Shown here: one piece after another, positions 1 to 8,615 of the stretch | How positions within the stretch are numbered: the stretch's first letter is position 1 | Layout: each line of letters begins with the position of its first letter | Source: Planctomycetota bacterium | GTDB lineage: Bacteria; Planctomycetota; SZUA-567; H5-PLA8 | Length of the DNA: 21,583 bases | Reading direction: 5' to 3' | NCBI GenBank assembly: GCA_038227875.1 | Contig: JBBRPR010000096.1 | Span: 1 to 21,583 of the forward strand | Notes under the pieces: generated by a model | The model's database searches: none | Told to the model about the DNA's origin: nothing | Seen by the model: the letters and a program-made list of their open reading frames with translations, nothing else | Translations under genes and position numbers: made by a program

Positions 1-887
1 CTGATTTGCGAGGGCGCTGAGTTGGCCCTCGCGCTTGGGCGGCTCATGGATGTCGATGTGGGGCTGCTCGTGCTGTTGAGATAGGCGGGACTCGAAGTCT
101 TCGCGGGTTTGCAGCGGGTGGTGGTGTGGCTGCGCTTCCAAGGTTTGGGTTTGGGCTTGTAGCTCGCGGGGTGGAGGGTGATAGGGGCTTCGTGTTGCTT
201 GATCAACTCTTCCGTGGCGGCTTCAACTTGTTCTTTGACGGTGCGCGTGGGGTCAAAGGGTTTCGGTTGGACTTCTTCGATGGGCTGCGGTGCGGTGACG
301 TTCTTCGGTGTGCCGTCGTCGTGGACGGGGTTGTTCGCCCAAGCGTGAACGTAGTCGGGCTGGAAGCCGGCGCAGGCGCCGGGCTCGGCGCGGTCCCCTT
401 CGGTTCCGGGACGGTCGGCACGGTCGGCACGGTCGCCGGGTTCGCGGTCTTTCGAATGGAAGGAGACTTTTTCGACGGCTTCGGCTTCCTGCAGTTCGGG
501 GAGTTTGTCGTTGAGCAGACTGGTCGGGTTCGGCAGCTTCGCGTTGAAGCCCATCAGGTCCCAGAAGCGTTGCGTGTGGCGGAGGATCGCGGTGCAGCTC
601 AGGCGGCGTTCCATGTCGGTCGTGTTGACCTTCAGGATCATGTGGCGGAGTTGCTGCGCGGAATCGAGTCCGCCTTCGATGAAGGTTTGCGCGGTGAGCT
701 GGACTTGCGTCCGCATGCCAGCCATGTTCTCGCCGACGGTTTTGCTGAGCGCCTGATCGAATGCGGGGATTTTCTTCCAACGGCAGAGGGTCTGGCGGCT
801 GATGTCGAGCTCCTGGGCGATCGAGTTGATGTCTTTTCCCAGCGATAATAGAACGATGGCGCGTTGTTGATTGACGTGCAGGGCCAT
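1..887 (-). CDS. N-terminal helix-turn-helix protein (homeodomain-like / phBC6A51-type HTH) with low-complexity C-terminus; 3' end lies outside the window
   Basis: Translated by hand from ATG at 887: MALHVNQQRAIVLLSLGKDINSIAQELDISRQTLCRWKKIPAFDQAL... The frame stays open to the window edge, so it has no stop and is absent from the ORF track. Strong RBS AAGGAGGAG lies just upstream. IAQELDISRQTLCRWK is a typical HTH. Confidence 0.8.
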   Translation of the reverse strand, partial: MALHVNQQRAIVLLSLGKDINSIAQELDISRQTLCRWKKIPAFDQALSKTVGENMAGMRTQVQLTAQTFIEGGLDSAQQLRHMILKVNTTDMERRLSCTAILRHTQRFWDLMGFNAKLPNPTSLLNDKLPELQEAEAVEKVSFHSKDREPGDRADRADRPGTEGDRAEPGACAGFQPDYVHAWANNPVHDDGTPKNVTAPQPIEEVQPKPFDPTRTVKEQVEAATEELIKQHEAPITLHPASYKPKPKPWKRSHTTTRCKPAKTSSPAYLNSTSSPTSTSMSRPSARANSAPSQI

Positions 888-942
888 GGGTTTCTCCTCC
901 TTATTTTCATCCATCATATTAGGGTTTTGTTCACATGTCAGA

Positions 943-970
943 AGATTACACCGTAGGATTGGGATGTCAA
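943..970 (-). promoter_or_regulatory. Putative sigma70-type promoter for the HTH gene
   Basis: Minus strand reads TTGACA-N16-TAATCT, about 55 nt upstream of ATG 887, in an AT-rich stretch. Confidence 0.5.
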
Positions 971-1100
971 TAGTTATTTTGTTAAAAACCGGGAAAGTGA
1001 TGTTTGGGGATTAGCGTGGGTTATTCCGAGAGACTGTGCGCAATCCCCTCACCCCGCGAGAGCTCGATCCGGACGTATCGGACGGGCGGGGATTGTTCGC

Positions 1101-1146
1101 GAGTGTGCCACTGGTGGCTTAACGGCTAGCCACCAGTGGCACACTC
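1101..1146. repeat. Perfect 19-bp inverted repeat (REP-like hairpin)
   Basis: GAGTGTGCCACTGGTGGCT (1101-1119), 8-nt loop, AGCCACCAGTGGCACACTC (1128-1146). Lies between divergent genes and has no U-tract. Confidence 0.85.
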
Positions 1147-1218
1147 CGACGGTTCTCATTGCAAGAGAATCGTGATTGTCCAAATTACAAGCGCGGCGTC
1201 CATCTATTTGGCAACAGG

Positions 1219-1247
1219 TTGCTCTGTGGGTGGGGCGGTGGTAATTT
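1219..1247 (+). promoter_or_regulatory. Putative sigma70-type promoter for the E2-like gene
   Basis: TTGCTC-N17-TAATTT with extended -10 TGG. ATG 1257 follows 9 nt later with no SD sequence. Confidence 0.45.
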
Positions 1248-1256
1248 CAAACGTCT

Positions 1257-2267
1257 ATGGAATCCGAATCCGAAACGACTGAACCGACGCCAACGCCGAC
1301 TTCGACGCCTTCACGCTTGCCGCGTGCGCCCGTCGGTCTTCCGCCTGAAGGTCCGCCGGCGATTTCGCCGCGGGCCAGACGGGCGGCAAAGAACATGGAT
1401 GTGCCGCTCCAGGCGCTACCGATTCCCGCGCCGGGTAAACGCATCACCGAACGCGATGTGCTTGCGGCGGCGAAGCAAAGCAAATCCGTTCCGATGACCA
1501 CGGCGGCGCGCAAACTCGCGGCGGCGCGGGGCGTCGATGGGGCGGAGCTCAGCGGTAAGATCAAGCGGCGGCTGAAGAGCCAGGACGTCGCGAAGCTCAA
1601 TCCCGTGGAGCTCCGGCAGCCGGCTGAACGGGTGAAGCTTTCTCACGAAGAACTGGAACACGCGGTGCGTGCGACGACCTTGATTCGCGACGTGCCGCAG
1701 ATTGGCGTCGATGCGTTTCTGCCGCGCGTTCGCGGCGCGGCGCTCGCCCCTTCCCTGCTCCACGCCATCGCGCAGCTGCTCACCGAAGAAACTTTCAAAC
1801 CGTTCCGCGCGGTGCTCGATGGCGACGACTGCGTCTACCGCGGGCAGCTCAACCTGAATTATGTAGCACATCGTGCCGACGGGGCGACGGCCGACAGTCA
1901 CCTCCTGCAAAATACCGAAAAGCTTTCACCCGAGGCCATCGGTGACGTGCTGGCTCAAGCGCCGGTACCATTTGATGCATTGCAAGCGGGAGTGCTGATT
2001 ACGGTCCGGGATTTGAGTGCGCTTCCCGTTGATGGTTTTCGAGCAGAGGTCGAGCCGGGACAGTCGGCAGTGATTACCGTATCGGGGCTGCAATCTCGGA
2101 TGGTGCACAGCGTCGAGCGTGGGGAATGGGTGTTCGAACAGGGATGGCGGATCTATATGGGGGCGGACGCACGAGTGATCACGCCAGAATTGTCAGGATT
2201 TTTTATTTCTCGCCTGAAATCCCGCATCGAGAATCCGTCTACACGTGTACATAATTGTGCAAGTTAG
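1257..2267 (+). CDS. 2-oxoacid dehydrogenase E2 (dihydrolipoamide acyltransferase)-like protein: two E3-binding domains plus a degenerate catalytic domain, no lipoyl domain
   Basis: E3-binding-like motifs ISPRARRAAKNMDV...GKRITERDV and MTTAARKLAAARGVD...RRLKSQDV. The C-terminus IYMGADARVITPELSGFFISRLKSRIENP aligns with canonical LSxDHRxxDGAxxxxFLxxLKxxLENP. Confidence 0.8.
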   Translation: MESESETTEPTPTPTSTPSRLPRAPVGLPPEGPPAISPRARRAAKNMDVPLQALPIPAPGKRITERDVLAAAKQSKSVPMTTAARKLAAARGVDGAELSGKIKRRLKSQDVAKLNPVELRQPAERVKLSHEELEHAVRATTLIRDVPQIGVDAFLPRVRGAALAPSLLHAIAQLLTEETFKPFRAVLDGDDCVYRGQLNLNYVAHRADGATADSHLLQNTEKLSPEAIGDVLAQAPVPFDALQAGVLITVRDLSALPVDGFRAEVEPGQSAVITVSGLQSRMVHSVERGEWVFEQGWRIYMGADARVITPELSGFFISRLKSRIENPSTRVHNCAS

Positions 2268-2312: not shown

Positions 2313-2996
2313 ATGAAGAGCGATTTCGAGTTGATGGCGAAGTTCAAGAGCGGCGACCCGGCCGCGTTTCATGCTCTCGCTCGTCGGCACCACGTCTCGG
2401 TTTACAACTTTTTTCTGATGCTCACCGGCCGCGAAACGGCCGCCCAGGAGCTCACCCGCGGCATCTTCGAGCAGCTGGTCGCTGACCGCTACCGCCTGCC
2501 GCTGGAACGGAAGTTTTCGACCAGTCTTTACCGCCTGGGTTACAGCCGCTGGGTGGCGTTTGAACAGTCGGGCGGGAACCGCCGCCACGAACCGGACGCG
2601 CCGGCCACGCAGGAAGCCGACAAGCTGGAACAAATTGCCGCACAAAAGGAATCCTTGCGCTTGCTGGCGCTCTTGCCCCGCGAGCTCAAGTTCCTGATGG
2701 TCTTAAGCGAAACGCTGCGCCTGAGCTTCCGCGAGATCGCCGAGATTCTCGACATCTCCGAAGAAGCGGTGGCGCGCCGCCTGTCCGACACGTACGGAAT
2801 TCTCACCGGCTCACTGCAGCAGCCCGCGCTGGAAGCGCCGAAGATCGTGCCGCCTCCGCCGCGAGCTCAGGCGCAATTGCCGGCGCCGCAGACGCCACTT
2901 CCTTCTGAACCCGTCGTGCCGCCGACACCGGAAGCGGCTTCCAGTGGCGAGTACCCCACAGGAAGTTCTGGCGCCACCGGGGAAAAGGCGGAGTAG
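2313..2996 (+). CDS. ECF (sigma-70 group 4) RNA polymerase sigma factor, divergent, with Pro-rich C-terminal tail
   Basis: SDFELMAKFKSGDPAAFHALARRH is a typical ECF N-terminus. LALLPRELKFLMVLSETLRLSFREIAEILDISEEAVARRL is region 4. The gene sits immediately upstream of an anti-sigma. Confidence 0.85.
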   Translation: MKSDFELMAKFKSGDPAAFHALARRHHVSVYNFFLMLTGRETAAQELTRGIFEQLVADRYRLPLERKFSTSLYRLGYSRWVAFEQSGGNRRHEPDAPATQEADKLEQIAAQKESLRLLALLPRELKFLMVLSETLRLSFREIAEILDISEEAVARRLSDTYGILTGSLQQPALEAPKIVPPPPRAQAQLPAPQTPLPSEPVVPPTPEAASSGEYPTGSSGATGEKAE

Positions 2997-2999
2997 TCC

Positions 3000-4094
3000 A
3001 TGAAATGCTCTGAGAACACCGCCAACCTCGCCGCGTATCTCCATGATGAATTGACGTCGTACGACGAAGACACGTTCCAGCTCCATCTGTCCGTCTGCAT
3101 CGCCTGCCGCGACAAACACGCCAAAGCGCGCGACGTACTGCTCCGATTTCAGCGCACCGTGCCGATGGAACCGTCGGCGATCGCGCGCGAAGACCTGCAC
3201 CGCAGCATCGATGTGGCGTTACGCAAGTCCGGCTCGCAGCCGCCGATCCGATTCCGCGACGGATCGGAAGTGCGCTGGCGCCGCCCGTTTGCCGCGAAGC
3301 CCTTCGCGCTGCCGATGCGCCGCACGCCCGCGCTGCCGGCTCCCGCGGCACCGACTGAAACGCCAGCGAATGCCAACCCGGGCGCGACGCCTGTGCCGAG
3401 CGGGCAGAACGTTCAGAACGCCGACACGCTTTCACCGTCCGCGCGCGTGGTTTCGGCGCGGTTGGAGAGCATCACCCGCCGCCGCAAACGCCTGCGCGTG
3501 CGCCGTGGTTTTTGGATGGCACTGGCCGTCGTCGCGCTGGCCGGTGGAGTCTTCACGTACTGGACCAGCCGCAACACCGCGCGACCGGTCACGCATCCGA
3601 CGATTTCAAAAGAGGAGTGCCTAGCGCGCCAGCGCTGGAACGAACGCCATGCGGCGTTTGAGCGCCAGCACGATGGCGGCGCGTCGCTGCTGATCAACCG
3701 GCAGATCGATCTCACCGGCCAGATCGGCACGACGGCCGTACGCGTCGTACCGCATGTCGACCCGCATTCCGGCGAAAGCTGTCTGGTCATCTACCGCGAG
3801 GAAGATCTCCGCGCGATTTACGCCGACGAGCAGTACGATCCGGCCGCGTTCAAGAAAACCCTGGGCAGCAGCATGGAAGTGGTCCCCGTCAACGGCAACA
3901 TCGCGCTCCCCGCGCAGTGGATTGAGACCTGCGTCGGCGCCGAGAACCGCGTGGTGATCCTGAAGCTGGAAAACCGCCTGGAGTTCTGGTCCTATGCGCG
4001 CCTGGAAAAGTACCTCGCGACGGGACCGACGTTCGACGCGACGGCGAATCTCGCGGTGGTGAATGGGTTGCCTGTTGTAGACCGGCGTTTTTAA
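3000..4094 (+). CDS. zf-HC2 (ZAS) transmembrane anti-sigma factor with a MraZ-like C-terminal domain
   Basis: N-terminal MKC...AYLHDEL...HLSVCIAC (HxxxCxxC), then a Pro/Ala linker, basic run RRRKRLRVRR and TM helix FWMALAVVALAGGVFTYW. Starts 3 nt after the sigma stop. The MraZ-like tail call is less certain than the anti-sigma call. Confidence 0.8.
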   Translation: MKCSENTANLAAYLHDELTSYDEDTFQLHLSVCIACRDKHAKARDVLLRFQRTVPMEPSAIAREDLHRSIDVALRKSGSQPPIRFRDGSEVRWRRPFAAKPFALPMRRTPALPAPAAPTETPANANPGATPVPSGQNVQNADTLSPSARVVSARLESITRRRKRLRVRRGFWMALAVVALAGGVFTYWTSRNTARPVTHPTISKEECLARQRWNERHAAFERQHDGGASLLINRQIDLTGQIGTTAVRVVPHVDPHSGESCLVIYREEDLRAIYADEQYDPAAFKKTLGSSMEVVPVNGNIALPAQWIETCVGAENRVVILKLENRLEFWSYARLEKYLATGPTFDATANLAVVNGLPVVDRRF

Positions 4095-4145: not shown

Positions 4146-4718
4146 CTACTCCAACGCCCAAGCATCCGGATCGTGCTTCACCTTGCGTAAATGGTGCGAG
4201 CGGATCTTCATGAAGAATTTGTCATACGTGCCATTCTTATAATCGGGAAATGTGAAAAAGTGGCCCTCCCACGAATCCACGCGGAAACTCATGGTGATTT
4301 CGGCGAATATGCCGTCTCTTAAATAGATCCGGTGCGCGAAGTCTTTGGTCGTGGCGAGCACCAGCTTGGCGCCGGTGACGTAGCCGGCATCAAGGTTGAT
4401 CGGACGCGCGGGCAGCGTTGCTCCAGAGGCAGCGAGCGTGTCTTTCAGCTCGAGTTCCATGCGGTTGGTGGCGAGTTTCCAATCGGCGAGGTCGGCGGGA
4501 TCGCGCAGTTTGCGGAAGGTGAAGAACTGCCGCTTCAACATCGGGCCCATGCTGGCGGTGTAATACTCGGTTTTCTCGAACGGGTAGAGCGGGCTTTCGA
4601 GCTCGATGGGACCGAAAAGATTTTCCAGGGGCGCGCGTGCGGCCTGGAAAAATGCGGCATCGGATGCAAGCATGGCTACCAAAGGTGTCACGCGCCGCGG
4701 AGATCGAAGTTCGCCCAT
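4146..4718 (-). CDS. DUF4416 family protein
   Basis: Characteristic motifs FGPI..S..YPF..TEYY..SMG..LKRQF, RPINLDAGY, LVLATTKDFAHRIYLRDGIFAEIT and FTFPDY. Confidence 0.85.
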   Translation of the reverse strand: MGELRSPRRVTPLVAMLASDAAFFQAARAPLENLFGPIELESPLYPFEKTEYYTASMGPMLKRQFFTFRKLRDPADLADWKLATNRMELELKDTLAASGATLPARPINLDAGYVTGAKLVLATTKDFAHRIYLRDGIFAEITMSFRVDSWEGHFFTFPDYKNGTYDKFFMKIRSHHLRKVKHDPDAWALE

Positions 4719-4843
4719 ATTTCACATTTTAATTTGGGCGGCGCCACTTACCATACCAAGTTGAAAGACTGTCGAACCTTCGATGCCGTTGGTCATCCGA
4801 TACATTCAAGGTTCGAAATCTTTTAGAGGAGCTTGCCCTGAGC

Positions 4844-6730
4844 TTGTCGAAGGAGTTTGATTTGATTACGCAACGCGCCCGGTTTACCGGGTTGCTTTTC
4901 GTCACGCTGCTTTCCATGACGGTCTTGAACGCGAGCGATGCGCCCGAGACCACACCCCCAGCCACCGCGCCCGCACCGAGTGCGGATGCACCGAAAGCCC
5001 CCAGCGACCTGCAGCGCCTGATCGCGGCAACTGGCACCGAGCCGCTGTGCGTCGTCGGCGTTCAAGACGTCAAGACGCTGCCGGAACGATTCGCGAAAAC
5101 GAATCTCAGCCAGATGCTCATCGACCCCACCTACGAAAAAGGGCTCACGACCATCAAGGGGCTGTTGAATGACAATTCCGGCGTGGAATTGAAGGAGTTC
5201 CTCACGCGCGCCGTGAAATTCATTGACGGACCCGCCGCTATTGTGGTGTCTGCCGGGCCCGATGGCATCGCTTACACCGCCTACGTTCAGGCCAAAAGCG
5301 AAGGATCGGCCAAGCAACTCGCTTCGATCTGGCCGGACGTGAAGGATCCCGGTCAGCTTTTTTCCGTGCTGAAGCTCAAGGCCCTGCTGGCCAAGGACCT
5401 GCCCGACGCGACAGCGGCGCTGCCGGATTGGGCCAGCAAGAATTTTCCCGACGGCGACGTCGCCATCATCGTCTCCCCGCGCAAAATGGTGAAGGCTCTC
5501 GAGAAGGCCATCGCCGACAACAAGCTGGATTCCAAAGCCAAGCCGCAGGCGCTGGCGGAGATTGAGCAGACGGGCATTGAGCGCCTGGCGCTGGGCATCG
5601 CCATCGACGGCGAATCGTTCACGGACAATCTGACTCTGGACCTGGCTCCCGATGCCGACAACACATTCACGCATGTCATCACCGCGCTGAAGGAAAAGCC
5701 GAAAGGCTGGGATTCGCTGCTGGCGGCGATGCCGTCCGATGGCGACTTGGTGGTGCTGATGCAGTCGGATCTGAAAGCGGTGAGCGCAGATCTGCCGTTT
5801 GCGATTCAGCCGCTGGAACGCTACCTGCGCGGAAAACGCTGGGCTAAAAAGGTGGGAATCACGTCGGAAGCACTGGACCCCAAGCGCTTCGATTTTCTGG
5901 TCAATCATCTGCACGGAGAACTGGGCATTTCCGCCAAGCCCACGCTGACGGCCGAATTGCATCTCTGCGTGGCCGGAGCGCTGAAGCCCGGCGAAACCGA
6001 CGCGGTCCGCGACGATTTCGTGAAGGGTTTGAATTCCCTGAGTGCCACGTTCGAAACGCTGCAGGGCGTGCCCAAGATCGGCAACAATGCGCCGCTGGGC
6101 GCGCAGTTTCAGGGACGAGGGATTTTCACCGCGCCGGTGATCGGCCTGAGCCCCGGCTGGTCGTGGCTCTGCTCGAATCTCGCGACGTATCAGGAATTGA
6201 CTTCGTCCCTGGCGAAAGGCCGCACGCTGGCCAATGCGTTCAAGAATGAAACAGCCCGATTGAATGCCGGCGGCGCCAAGGTGGAGCTCTGGCATCCGGA
6301 AGACGCGCTGCGCGTGCAGATCAGCCTCGAACGGGTGGTGCAACTTGCGTACACGGCGTGGCTGCTTTCCGGCGAGGACGGCCCGTTCATCGCCGGCTGG
6401 CGCGTGCCGTCGGACATGCTTCCGCCACCGCAGCTTTTCCAGGGGCGACTGGGCAGTCTGCGCGTGGGGCTGAGCCGCTCGGGGCGCACACTTTCTAGCT
6501 ACTCGCACTGCTCGATTCCCGGCGTCTCGGGGCTCTCCGTGCTGTTGATGGGTGAGTTGTCCAACGCGGTGGAAGACGGCCGCGACTTCGCGAAGAATCC
6601 GCCGCCGCCCGCGCCCGATCGGCCTGCGACGGTGAAGCAGAAAAAGAAAGCCGCCAAGGAAGACGCTGATCCGGCAATGGGCGATGACGAGACCAAGCAA
6701 GCCGCGAAGCCCAAGGGAGATCAGCCGTAA
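4844..6730 (+). CDS. Secreted hypothetical protein (628 aa)
   Basis: Long ORF with GC3-type codon bias. Signal-peptide-like RARFTGLLFVTLLSMTVLNA-SD followed by a Pro-rich linker; charged C-terminal tail. TTG start with GAGGAG upstream; exact start uncertain. Confidence 0.75.
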   Translation: MSKEFDLITQRARFTGLLFVTLLSMTVLNASDAPETTPPATAPAPSADAPKAPSDLQRLIAATGTEPLCVVGVQDVKTLPERFAKTNLSQMLIDPTYEKGLTTIKGLLNDNSGVELKEFLTRAVKFIDGPAAIVVSAGPDGIAYTAYVQAKSEGSAKQLASIWPDVKDPGQLFSVLKLKALLAKDLPDATAALPDWASKNFPDGDVAIIVSPRKMVKALEKAIADNKLDSKAKPQALAEIEQTGIERLALGIAIDGESFTDNLTLDLAPDADNTFTHVITALKEKPKGWDSLLAAMPSDGDLVVLMQSDLKAVSADLPFAIQPLERYLRGKRWAKKVGITSEALDPKRFDFLVNHLHGELGISAKPTLTAELHLCVAGALKPGETDAVRDDFVKGLNSLSATFETLQGVPKIGNNAPLGAQFQGRGIFTAPVIGLSPGWSWLCSNLATYQELTSSLAKGRTLANAFKNETARLNAGGAKVELWHPEDALRVQISLERVVQLAYTAWLLSGEDGPFIAGWRVPSDMLPPPQLFQGRLGSLRVGLSRSGRTLSSYSHCSIPGVSGLSVLLMGELSNAVEDGRDFAKNPPPPAPDRPATVKQKKKAAKEDADPAMGDDETKQAAKPKGDQP

Positions 6731-6731
6731 A

Positions 6732-8615
6732 ATGCTCCCGCGCATTCTGCTGATCGTCACACTGCTGCTGGTCTTTCTCCTTGCCATGCAAGGGTGCAAT
6801 CCCGGCATGGACTACTACACGTCCATGCAGGTTCAGAAGCTGGACGGGCAGTCGTATCTGATACTCGAAAACATGGCCTCGACGGCCGAGGGCTCCGAAC
6901 CGTATTTCAGCATCTACAAACCCGGCGACAATGGCCCTGTCGAATGGAAGCCGGTGACCACCGATCGTCTTGGCCACGCATTGGGAATTTTCCGCGTGAA
7001 GGTGGCTGAACCGGCCGCGGCGGTCACACCTCCGGCACGGGCTGGCGTGACGCCACCCAGAAGCGAAACACCGATTTCAGAAATTCAGCCGGTCACCATC
7101 GACAATCCGCCGGCCAAGACAGAAACACCGCCCGCGCCGGCGGCACCCGCGTCTCAAATGCGCCTCGGCATCTTTCACGGCGACAACGGCTCCACACGCA
7201 TTGACCTCGCGGCGACTCCGCCCACATCGACCTACAAGCGTGTCGACTTCAATTGGATTCCGCTGACCACGTCGGAACTCAACGGCGTAACCTACGCGTT
7301 CGGCGTCGATCGCTTCGAGGCGAATGACAAACGCACGGAAGCACCGCTCCGCGTCGCGCGGCTGAATGGCGAGACGTGGACCGATCTGAATCTCTCCGGC
7401 CCGGCGGTGAAGCTCAACACGCTCAAAGCATTTTCGCTCGACGCACTGGCCTTGAGTTCCGGAATCAAAGTGCTCTGGCGCAATGCCGTGGAAGATCCCG
7501 GCCTGCTGGAAGGACCGCGCTACACCACGGACGGGCCGCTGGCCATGGTCTCGTTCGACGGCAAGGATTTTGAAAAGAATCCCGCGGAAGAGGGCAAAGA
7601 CGCCAGCGTAAAGATTATCAACGTGTCCAAGCTGCCCAAGGGCAACGCTTCGCTCTGGGTGGAGCAGAACGAAATCCACGCGCTGATCCAGACCCGCCCG
7701 AAAGACGAGCAGTCGTTGTCGATGAACAGCCCGATGGAAATCTGGACCATCCAGGCGGACGGTGAAACGAAGATGGTCGAGCGGATCGAAGGCTCGCAGA
7801 GCAAGCCGGGCCTGATGGCGTTCATTGCCGCCGAACATTTCACTGACAAGGGGCAGGAGTACATCCTGCGCTCGAACTGGCAGAATTTTGAAGTGTGGCA
7901 GCGCGTCGAAGGCACCTTCAAGATGATCCGCGCCAATCCGCCGGGTCTGCCGACGTACGATCTCGAGTCGGTGCTCTGGACGGGACTGGCTGGAGCCGGT
8001 GCGCTGGTCTTATTCGGCGCGTTCCTGGCGTGGCGGCGCCGTCAGGCGTGGACGCTGATGCGCCGCATCCAGGCGCATGAAATCTATGCCACCGTCGGTT
8101 CGCGGACGGGTGCGTACCTGGTGGATCTCGCCATCATTGTTGGAGGCGCTGTGCTGTACAGCCGCCTCCGCGGATCGTACGCCAGCCCGTTCGAAATGGT
8201 CTTTCTCGATTTCTCGAAGTTGCCCTACTGGCCGTTCTTCGTCATCTACATGCTTTATTTTTCGCTGGCCGAATGGCTCTTCGGCACGACGGCCGGAAAA
8301 CTTCTGATGGGACTTTGCGTGGTGATGGATGGCGGGCAGAAGCTGTCGCTGACGTCAGCGGTGATTCGCAATCTCGTCGGATTCGTGGAGCGTATTCCAC
8401 AAATTGTGCTGGTGGTCGTCTGGCCGATGATTCTGCTGACGCCGCGGCGCCAGCGGCTGGGCGATATGCTCTCGCGCTCATTTGTGGTCCACAAAAGCGC
8501 GCTCGATATTTTCAAGCAGCAGCGCGACCAGGAACTGGCGAAGTTGCGCAGCGAAGCGCTCTCCAGCGGCGCGTTGGCGGGCAAATCCGACGAAACCAAG
8601 GACGGCAAGCCGTAA
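6732..8615 (+). CDS. RDD family membrane protein with a large N-terminal extracytoplasmic domain (probable lipoprotein)
   Basis: ATG 6732 lies 1 nt after the upstream stop. MLPRILLIVTLLLVFLLAMQG-C is lipobox-like. C-terminal RDD motifs: YATVGSRTGAYLVD, GTTAGKLLMGLCVV, IRNL, RRQRLGDMLSRSFVV. Confidence 0.85.
   Translation: MLPRILLIVTLLLVFLLAMQGCNPGMDYYTSMQVQKLDGQSYLILENMASTAEGSEPYFSIYKPGDNGPVEWKPVTTDRLGHALGIFRVKVAEPAAAVTPPARAGVTPPRSETPISEIQPVTIDNPPAKTETPPAPAAPASQMRLGIFHGDNGSTRIDLAATPPTSTYKRVDFNWIPLTTSELNGVTYAFGVDRFEANDKRTEAPLRVARLNGETWTDLNLSGPAVKLNTLKAFSLDALALSSGIKVLWRNAVEDPGLLEGPRYTTDGPLAMVSFDGKDFEKNPAEEGKDASVKIINVSKLPKGNASLWVEQNEIHALIQTRPKDEQSLSMNSPMEIWTIQADGETKMVERIEGSQSKPGLMAFIAAEHFTDKGQEYILRSNWQNFEVWQRVEGTFKMIRANPPGLPTYDLESVLWTGLAGAGALVLFGAFLAWRRRQAWTLMRRIQAHEIYATVGSRTGAYLVDLAIIVGGAVLYSRLRGSYASPFEMVFLDFSKLPYWPFFVIYMLYFSLAEWLFGTTAGKLLMGLCVVMDGGQKLSLTSAVIRNLVGFVERIPQIVLVVVWPMILLTPRRQRLGDMLSRSFVVHKSALDIFKQQRDQELAKLRSEALSSGALAGKSDETKDGKP

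Follow-up and report, generated by a model that had tools for sequence, protein, structure and literature searches.

Introduction

In mammals, the E3-binding protein (E3BP) is a catalytically inactive paralog of the dihydrolipoyl acyltransferase E2 that recruits the dihydrolipoyl dehydrogenase E3 through a specialised peripheral subunit-binding domain (PSBD) and has the domain topology of E2, whereas in bacteria a single PSBD serves both E1 and E3, as laid out in the part of PMC10156792 on which we draw. Non-catalytic, E3-recruiting E2 paralogs have so far been treated as a eukaryotic device. In the literature covered, outside of which lie most subscription journals, we found no description of a bacterial catalytically dead E2 derivative.

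Here, we analysed a stretch of 21,583 nucleotides from a planctomycete (Planctomycetota bacterium, contig JBBRPR010000096.1 of assembly GCA_038227875.1), which we call the window, and in it one open reading frame (ORF) for a lipoyl-less, E2-like protein. A first-pass annotation, made from the letters of this stretch, had described the ORF as encoding a catalytically dead protein with tandem E3-binding domains and had suggested that it could be a bacterial analogue of E3BP, a decoy titrating E1 and E3, or a self-assembling cage scaffold. We find that the protein is a non-catalytic descendant of an orphan E2, that its gene is not a decaying pseudogene but is under purifying selection mainly on its N-terminal docking region, and that it occupies the locus at which relatives carry intact enzymes. 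We propose that it may act as a binding or scaffold protein that resembles E3BP and arose independently of it. Throughout, genomes, loci and proteins are labelled G, L and P; G000 is the window's own genome and f1 its family. The unpublished genome G019 carries no claim of this analysis.

Results

The window protein has kept the fold and the docking domain of an E2 and has lost its lipoyl arm and its catalytic residues. The ORF itself is as first described (Table 1). Pfam recognises E3_binding (PF02817) at aa 36-69 with 28.6 bits (cut-off 23.7) and 2-oxoacid_dh (PF00198) at aa 245-329 with 29.4 bits (cut-off 23), the latter match spanning only profile positions 147-229, i.e. the last third of the catalytic domain, while the NCBIfam E2 models stay far under their cut-offs (best 37 bits vs 445). 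The first-pass annotation was right that a lipoyl domain is missing, as Biotin_lipoyl (PF00364) has no Pfam match in the protein at E <= 0.1. It had also raised the possibility of a truncation that would have left a frameshifted lipoyl domain upstream. No such remnant was found: the 340-nt stretch 5' of the ORF (918-1256) contains stops in all three forward frames, and a tblastn search of the lipoyl domains of related proteins against window positions 1-1500 gave a best match at E about 8.

Both catalytic motifs are replaced, DHRxxDG by DARVITP at exactly the position given in the first-pass annotation and the active-site serine motif T-x-S-N by TVRD. The serine of this motif corresponds to Ser558 in the A. 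vinelandii entries 1dpb, 1dpc and 1dpd, according to the entry titles. To judge these changes, we used an alignment (A3) of 106 sequences, 19 from the clade to which the window protein belongs (see below) and 87 from outside it. Among the latter, the histidine, the Ser/Thr and the Asp/Asn at His+4 are each present in 86 of 87, and the replacements in the window protein are therefore far from chance. Within the clade, the full catalytic set is retained in 4 of the 19 sequences, and the histidine column holds A, E, Q, R or Y, differing by subgroup. Among the defining features of an E2, the window protein shows two, the chloramphenicol acetyltransferase-like (CAT-like) fold and the PSBD, and lacks three: the lipoyl domain, the His with Asp/Asn-Gly, and the Ser/Thr. 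With lipoyl domain, His and Ser missing, its annotation as a dihydrolipoamide acyltransferase is inappropriate, even though sources label its relatives so.

The N-terminal part of the protein is arranged around the PSBD. PSBD1 is the best-conserved module of the protein and retains the SPRARR helix; it aligns with the PSBD of 7bgj_A at E 1.6e-4, and the basic helix lines up with those of solved PSBDs. It is preceded by a clade-specific motif with the consensus LPxxPVxLPxEGPP, in which L28, G32, P33 and P34 are invariant in an eight-sequence family alignment. The second E3-binding-like domain of the first-pass annotation (aa ~79-112) is also borne out, in degenerate form and with variation across the clade: Pfam misses it and BLASTP against PSBD1 gave no alignment, while a comparison of family profiles with PSBD1 by hhalign gave a probability of 91.6% and E 8e-7, as a single comparison without a shuffled or unrelated-profile control. 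An AlphaFold2 (AF2) model places helix-loop-helix elements in both PSBD segments.

The same model (106-sequence alignment; mean pLDDT 91.2, pTM 0.84) predicts that a complete, heavily diverged CAT-like core is retained, because residues 140-334 superpose on solved E2 cores over ~185 residues with Z about 20 and a root mean square deviation (rmsd) of 2.4-2.8 A (1dpc: Z 20.4, rmsd 2.4 A, 183 residues aligned) and a Foldseek comparison with E2 cores gives E about 1e-13. The pTM also suggests that PSBD1 and PSBD2 may pack on this core. The best PDB sequence match of the family profile is the E2o core 9mu6_A (6.7e-15).

Table 1. Features of the window around the E2-like gene (nucleotide positions in the window; residues of the E2-like protein).
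Feature	Position	Residues	Strand	Basis or remark
Hairpin, perfect 19-bp stem 1101-1119 / 1128-1146	1097..1149		strandless	upstream intergenic, dispersed repeat
E2-like ORF, lipoyl-less, catalytically dead	1257..2267	336 aa	+	coordinates include the stop
Clade-specific pre-PSBD motif LPRAPVGLPPEGPPAI	1314..1361	20-35	+	invariant columns, regional identity
PSBD1	1362..1472	36-72	+	Pfam E3_binding, alignment to 7bgj_A PSBD, regional identity
PSBD2-like repeat	1485..1601	77-115	+	hhalign; AF2 helices 82-91, 95-101, 108-112
CAT-like E2 core domain	1602..2246	116-330	+	AF2 model vs solved E2 cores
TVRD for T-x-S-N (oxyanion Ser to Arg, Asn to Asp)	2001..2012	249-252	+	alignments
DARVITP for DHRxxDG (His to Ala, Asp to Thr, Gly to Pro)	2166..2186	304-310	+	alignments
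ECF-type sigma factor	2313..2996		+	45 nt 3' of the E2-like ORF; same adjacency in L032, L009, L011
Anti-sigma factor, N-terminal zf-HC2 (HxxxCxxC)	3000..4094		+	domain scan, ortholog search; cytoplasmic part 3000..~3530
DUF4416 gene	4146..4718		-	conserved locus flank in L033, L036, L068

Is the window protein an isolated oddity or a member of a lineage? Conserved homologs do exist, against the possibility, raised in the first-pass annotation, that there might be none. A word-indexed search with the window protein returned 14 proteins at E <= 1e-3, and an exhaustive search of 1.84 billion cluster representatives returned 123 at E <= 1e-3, 17 at <= 1e-10 and 7 at <= 1e-30. With the window protein as query, the clade was found in 5 of the 62 genomes of the class, the window's included, all of one planctomycete family (4 of the 16 other f1 genomes, 0 of the 45 genomes of other families). 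A maximum-likelihood tree of 30 rows, in which no eukaryotic sequence was included, sets 22 clade rows apart from canonical E2s at 100/100. At the base of the clade stand P0007 (L009), P0018 (L032) and P0020, with the lipoyl domain, T-x-S-N and DHRxVDG intact, together with P0024, which is lipoyl-less and otherwise intact. A nested dead group of 12 rows (91/90) has the histidine changed to Q, E, R or A, and those of its rows with a complete N-terminus also have no lipoyl domain; on the DNA, this loss was confirmed in L011, L036, L010 and L037, in which the upstream gene lies too close for such a domain to fit. The histidine was lost separately in P0025, which has kept its lipoyl domain, and in L033/L037. 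Catalysis thus became dispensable more than once in the clade. The window protein falls in a six-row His-to-Ala subgroup (100/99), beside P0002 (75% identity), and is the most degenerate member of this small orphan-E2 clade.

A point that the first-pass annotation had missed is that the window gene is orthologous to intact orphan E2s found in this position in relatives, and no extra paralog, because the locus is common to L032, L009, L011, L033 and L036 (Table 2); the window's genome holds no intact clade member. One locus in the relatives spans an intact E2, dead forms and an empty slot.

Table 2. Gene order at the window locus and at loci of relatives (TPR, tetratricopeptide repeat; HTH, helix-turn-helix; ECF, extracytoplasmic function).
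Locus	Upstream gene	E2 or E2-like gene	Downstream genes
Window	divergent HTH gene	dead E2-like	ECF sigma, anti-sigma, DUF4416
L032	DUF4832/GH42-like gene	intact E2	ECF sigma, anti-sigma
L009	TPR gene	intact E2	ECF sigma (contig cut)
L011	TPR gene	dead E2-like	ECF sigma
L033	TPR gene	E2 with lipoyl-like domain, His to Tyr	DUF4416, then homologs of window ORFs 4844 and 6684
L036	TPR gene	dead E2-like	DUF4416, then homolog of window ORF 4844
L037	TPR gene	dead E2-like	contig cut

Several observations show that the dead gene is still maintained by selection. Contigs of a metagenome run from a near-identical strain (X2) cover positions 1372-1755 and 2129-2467, and two of them differ from the window, at six and three positions; all eight listed differences within the ORF lie at third codon positions and are synonymous, with synonymous sites making up 134.7 of the 519 sites in the covered part. 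One more listed difference, from other contigs, is synonymous too. The ratio of nonsynonymous to synonymous rates (dN/dS) is 0.16 for the dead pair L010-L011 (dS 1.57) vs 0.25 for the intact pair L009-L032; relatives with DNA closer to the window gene for such an estimate were found neither in the 62 class genomes nor in scans of genome and metagenome contigs. Every dead member examined, down to 34% identity, has kept an uninterrupted reading frame. Regional conservation, taken as the mean pairwise identity by group, shows where the constraint lies. In PSBD1 it is 0.71 among dead members, 0.73 among intact members and 0.68 between dead and intact, and in the pre-PSBD motif 0.70, 0.74 and 0.62, respectively, the value in the dead group comparing with 0.34 in canonical E2s. 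In the core, the corresponding figures are 0.21-0.43, 0.57-0.67 and 0.23-0.40. Judged by these identities, selection on the docking module stayed as it was upon the loss of catalysis and that on the core relaxed.

Which proteins of the window's genome could the docking module bind? As candidates, the genome encodes two bona fide E3s, on C17 (L049:1468-2883, - strand) and C39 (L048:1468-2892, - strand), and several E1s, among them E1alpha-beta proteins on C8, C12, C7 and C2. As the first-pass annotation had stated, the window holds no E1 or E3, and E1_dh, Transket_pyr and Pyr_redox_dim have no match among the window genes scanned. Elsewhere in the genome, C43 (L053:222-3392, - strand) is a 1057-aa ORF that joins E1_dh, Transket_pyr, Transketolase_C, a lipoyl domain and an E2 catalytic domain and has no PSBD, with ~30 aa between the lipoyl and catalytic domains and no E3_binding match; similar frames of ~1090-1190 aa occur in at least seven other family genomes. 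As a specific partner of the window protein, this PSBD-less E1-E2 fusion was rejected, since its phyletic pattern does not track the clade. The same holds for the orphan E1alpha-beta on C8, found in 15 of the 16 other family genomes, and for the TPR neighbour, which has orthologs in 16 of the 17 family genomes regardless of the presence of the clade. The C12 E2 has no detectable PSBD. In C7 (L002:1495-3628, - strand), an E1beta with a C-terminal lipoyl domain precedes a lipoyl-less, catalytically intact E2. In C51 (L069:4131-4634, + strand; 167 aa), a linker joins a lipoyl domain to a PSBD and the catalytic domain is missing; the gene adjoins a DHH/DHHA1 protein and two SIR2-family genes; as a split-off N-terminal half of the window protein it was rejected, its best matches being ordinary E2s with no clade member in the top 18. 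C16 (L052:3736-3981, + strand) is a stand-alone lipoyl protein of 81 aa with a VTDKAA motif, upstream of tmk-like and holB-like genes. The genome also carries another degenerate E2-like gene, unrelated to the first: C9 (L005:973-1833, + strand) encodes 286 aa with a catalytic domain only (75 bits for PF00198), in which the His motif reads FDRR (His to Arg).

The remaining features of the window concern the surroundings of the gene. On the side of the gene at 3..917 (- strand), synteny with the relatives, which have a TPR gene upstream, is broken; this gene encodes a divergent HTH protein truncated by the contig start, whose match to HTH_Tnp_1_2 (27.0 bits) falls just short of the cut-off, and the TPR ortholog of the window's genome lies on another contig, followed by a pseudopilin-like gene. 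The intergenic hairpin (RNA fold -44.6 kcal/mol, z -8.2) has 54 matches on both strands over many contigs of the genome, often near contig ends, and looks like an element of the repetitive extragenic palindromic (REP) or miniature inverted-repeat transposable element (MITE) type; an Rfam scan of 880-1300 gave no match. Contigs of four metagenome runs break at it, and in run X1 the summed contig depth at 900-1220 is several-fold higher than over the rest, partly owing to this repeat. Further downstream, the ORFs 4823..6808 (- strand) and 4844..6730 (+ strand) are antisense to each other with almost full overlap, and the former is probably a high-GC artefact, because the latter has a coding-like GC content at third codon positions (GC3) and homologs in L033 and L036.

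Discussion

We propose that the window protein is a non-catalytic, PSBD-bearing binding or scaffold protein, similar to E3BP and independent of it in origin, and we regard this as the best explanation, with a probability of about one half. Judging by gene layout, its gene is probably co-transcribed with the ECF sigma/anti-sigma pair just downstream. The function retained would be the docking of a partner via PSBD1, presented on the CAT-like core, which is probably trimeric. The known ligands of PSBDs are E3 and E1, and the partner would most plausibly be the dihydrolipoyl dehydrogenase E3 or an E1, which the window protein might tether, sequester or organise without any acyl transfer. In outline, such a role would be analogous to that of the eukaryotic E3BP, without the swinging arm. 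What speaks most for a binding role is the equal conservation of the pre-PSBD motif and PSBD1 in dead and intact members, next to a relaxed core. From the first-pass annotation, the view of an E2 derivative that is unfit for the known E2 chemistry, has kept its PSBDs and has conserved homologs held up; a choice among its three roles, E3BP analogue, decoy or cage, did not follow from it.

A number of points weigh against our proposal. No binding partner of the window protein was identified, and at no locus does an E1 or E3 gene lie beside a clade member. The loop of PSBD1 is atypical (PLQALPIPAPGKRIT), reading PIPAPGKRIT vs GxGxxGRI in the canonical members of the alignment, and the ligand may therefore be neither E3 nor E1. 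The gene is dispensable in the family; with the window protein as query, 12 of the 17 family genomes gave no match at E <= 1e-20, and in G017, a congener of the L036 genome, the TPR gene is directly followed by DUF4416 and the E2 slot is empty. Its GC3 is 0.66 vs 0.72-0.79 in the neighbouring genes. Against distant members, the window gene has a dN/dS of 0.28-0.49, with synonymous sites saturated, and one of the nine X2 differences was absent from those listed, so that its effect was not seen. Finally, the hydrophobic C-terminal tail present in other members is lost or replaced in the window protein and its closest relatives P0002 and P0016. In E2 cores, this tail makes inter-trimer contacts, and with its loss we would expect a trimer rather than a cage, which makes the self-assembling cage suggested earlier less likely for this protein.

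Could the protein instead serve the regulatory genes next to it? The position of the E2-like gene directly upstream of an ECF sigma/anti-sigma pair had escaped the first-pass annotation, and it raises the possibility that the protein is a signalling accessory of this module, passing the state of a dehydrogenase complex, a redox signal or an acyl-CoA signal to the zinc-finger anti-sigma factor, or else the main member of its regulon. In four loci (window, L032, L009 and L011) the E2 or E2-like gene and the sigma gene share a strand, separated by gaps of 25-45 nt, and no terminator-like site was found between the two in the window. Moreover, the sole clear ortholog of the anti-sigma factor among the 17 family genomes adjoins the clade E2 of G004, and the anti-sigma factor carries an HxxxCxxC motif. 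However, the sigma pair is missing beside the clade gene in L033 and L036, gene order within one family may be mere inheritance, the co-transcription is itself deduced from layout, and no neighbour of this kind is mentioned in the main text of PMC7826278, a paper on the classification of ECF sigma factors. We consider this explanation unlikely. Its more specific form, in which the dead E2-like protein would be an adaptor relaying the 2-oxoacid or lipoamide-redox state to the sigma factor, with E3, E1 or the anti-sigma factor's cytoplasmic zinc-finger domain as the docking site of the pre-PSBD motif and PSBD1, seems quite unlikely to us; if it were true, the fossil of a metabolic enzyme would have been reused as a sensor subunit.

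To the proposal of a binding protein under selection one can oppose a functionless relic, a dispensable orphan E2 that is far advanced in decay and bound for deletion. The range from intact through dead to absent that relatives show at this locus, the missing clade in 12 of 17 family genomes, the weak Pfam score (29.4 bits), the long branches in the dead group, the lowered GC3 and the altered C-terminal tail are all in line with such a course. Such a relic is difficult to reconcile with the uninterrupted frames of every dead member examined (down to 34% identity), with eight listed recent substitutions that are all synonymous, with a dN/dS of 0.16 within the dead group, with a PSBD1 conserved as in the intact enzymes and with the confident fold prediction, and we assign it a rather small probability.

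A further alternative takes the analogy literally and makes the window protein a true functional E3BP, an E3-recruiting subunit that co-assembles with the C43 fusion or the C12 E2. Neither of these has an E3_binding match of its own, and repeated loss of catalysis with the PSBD kept is what an E3BP-like role predicts. Yet C43-like frames occur in G007, G009, G011, G013, G014 and G015, all without a clade member, whereas G005, G016 and G018 have a clade member and no C43-like frame among their matches, and the altered C-terminal tail would argue against integration into such a core; we find this distinctly improbable. That the protein is still an enzyme, i.e. a CAT-fold acyltransferase with other catalytic residues and a non-lipoyl substrate, is very unlikely, since all three catalytic positions are replaced, differently in each subgroup, and the middle of the core is least conserved (0.21), even though ADARV is invariant round the former active site in the six-member His-to-Ala group, which points to some constraint there, and the His at aa 206 and 284 are conserved in most of this subgroup.

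What can be learned from this locus? At one orthologous bacterial position, the path from an intact orphan E2 to a lipoyl-less dead protein that is still under selection can be followed, and we regard this evolutionary series as the most useful aspect of the system. It amounts to a natural experiment in which an enzyme core turns into a pure binding or scaffold module, with the constraint centred on the docking domain, and the set of intact, half-dead and dead sequences lets the step from an E2 to an E3BP-like protein be probed biochemically.

How does the window protein compare with the systems described so far? With canonical bacterial E2s (PF00364 + PF02817 + PF00198) it shares the PSBD and the CAT-like core fold; it differs from them in having no lipoyl domain and no adjoining E1 or E3, in the replacement of Ser, His and Asp-Gly, in the atypical loop of PSBD1 and in the LPxxPVxLPxEGPP motif before it. 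Like the window protein, the lipoyl-less active E2 of C7 combines a PSBD and a core with no lipoyl domain in the same polypeptide, but it keeps DHRVHDG, scores 186.6 bits with PF00198 and sits in an E1-E2 operon. In P0060, a protein of 307 aa from a contig of 1868 bases, two canonical PSBDs are combined with a core whose His motif reads ADARLV, again without a lipoyl domain; it falls outside the clade and is a dead E2-like protein that came to the His-to-Ala change independently. It was rejected as the sign of a wider family, because it is a singleton and the proteins closest to it (<=35% identity) are ordinary E2s. Further leads, and no more than leads, are atlas clusters of proteins 252-278 aa long, in which E3_binding is present in 99-100% of members and 2-oxoacid_dh in 29% or none.

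The eukaryotic E3BP (protein X, PDHX) comes closest in outline, being likewise derived from an E2, with an inactive acyltransferase-like core and a PSBD kept; the human E3BP core 6h60 is matched by the family profile at E 1.5e-10 and, with Z 19.1, by the model. Common descent with the eukaryotic E3BP was not recovered, the closest relatives being the bacterial E2s of the shared locus; E2 chains also outrank 6h60 when the profile is searched against the PDB. Mammalian E3BP has the topology of E2 including the lipoyl domain, as given in the portion of PMC10156792 used here, whereas the window protein is lipoyl-less. With its independent bacterial origin, no lipoyl domain and an E3 binding that is only putative, the window protein stands outside the E3BP family. 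In contrast to the eukaryotic protein, it does not accompany an intact copy as an added paralog, and its nearest relatives are intact bacterial orphan E2s at the very same locus.

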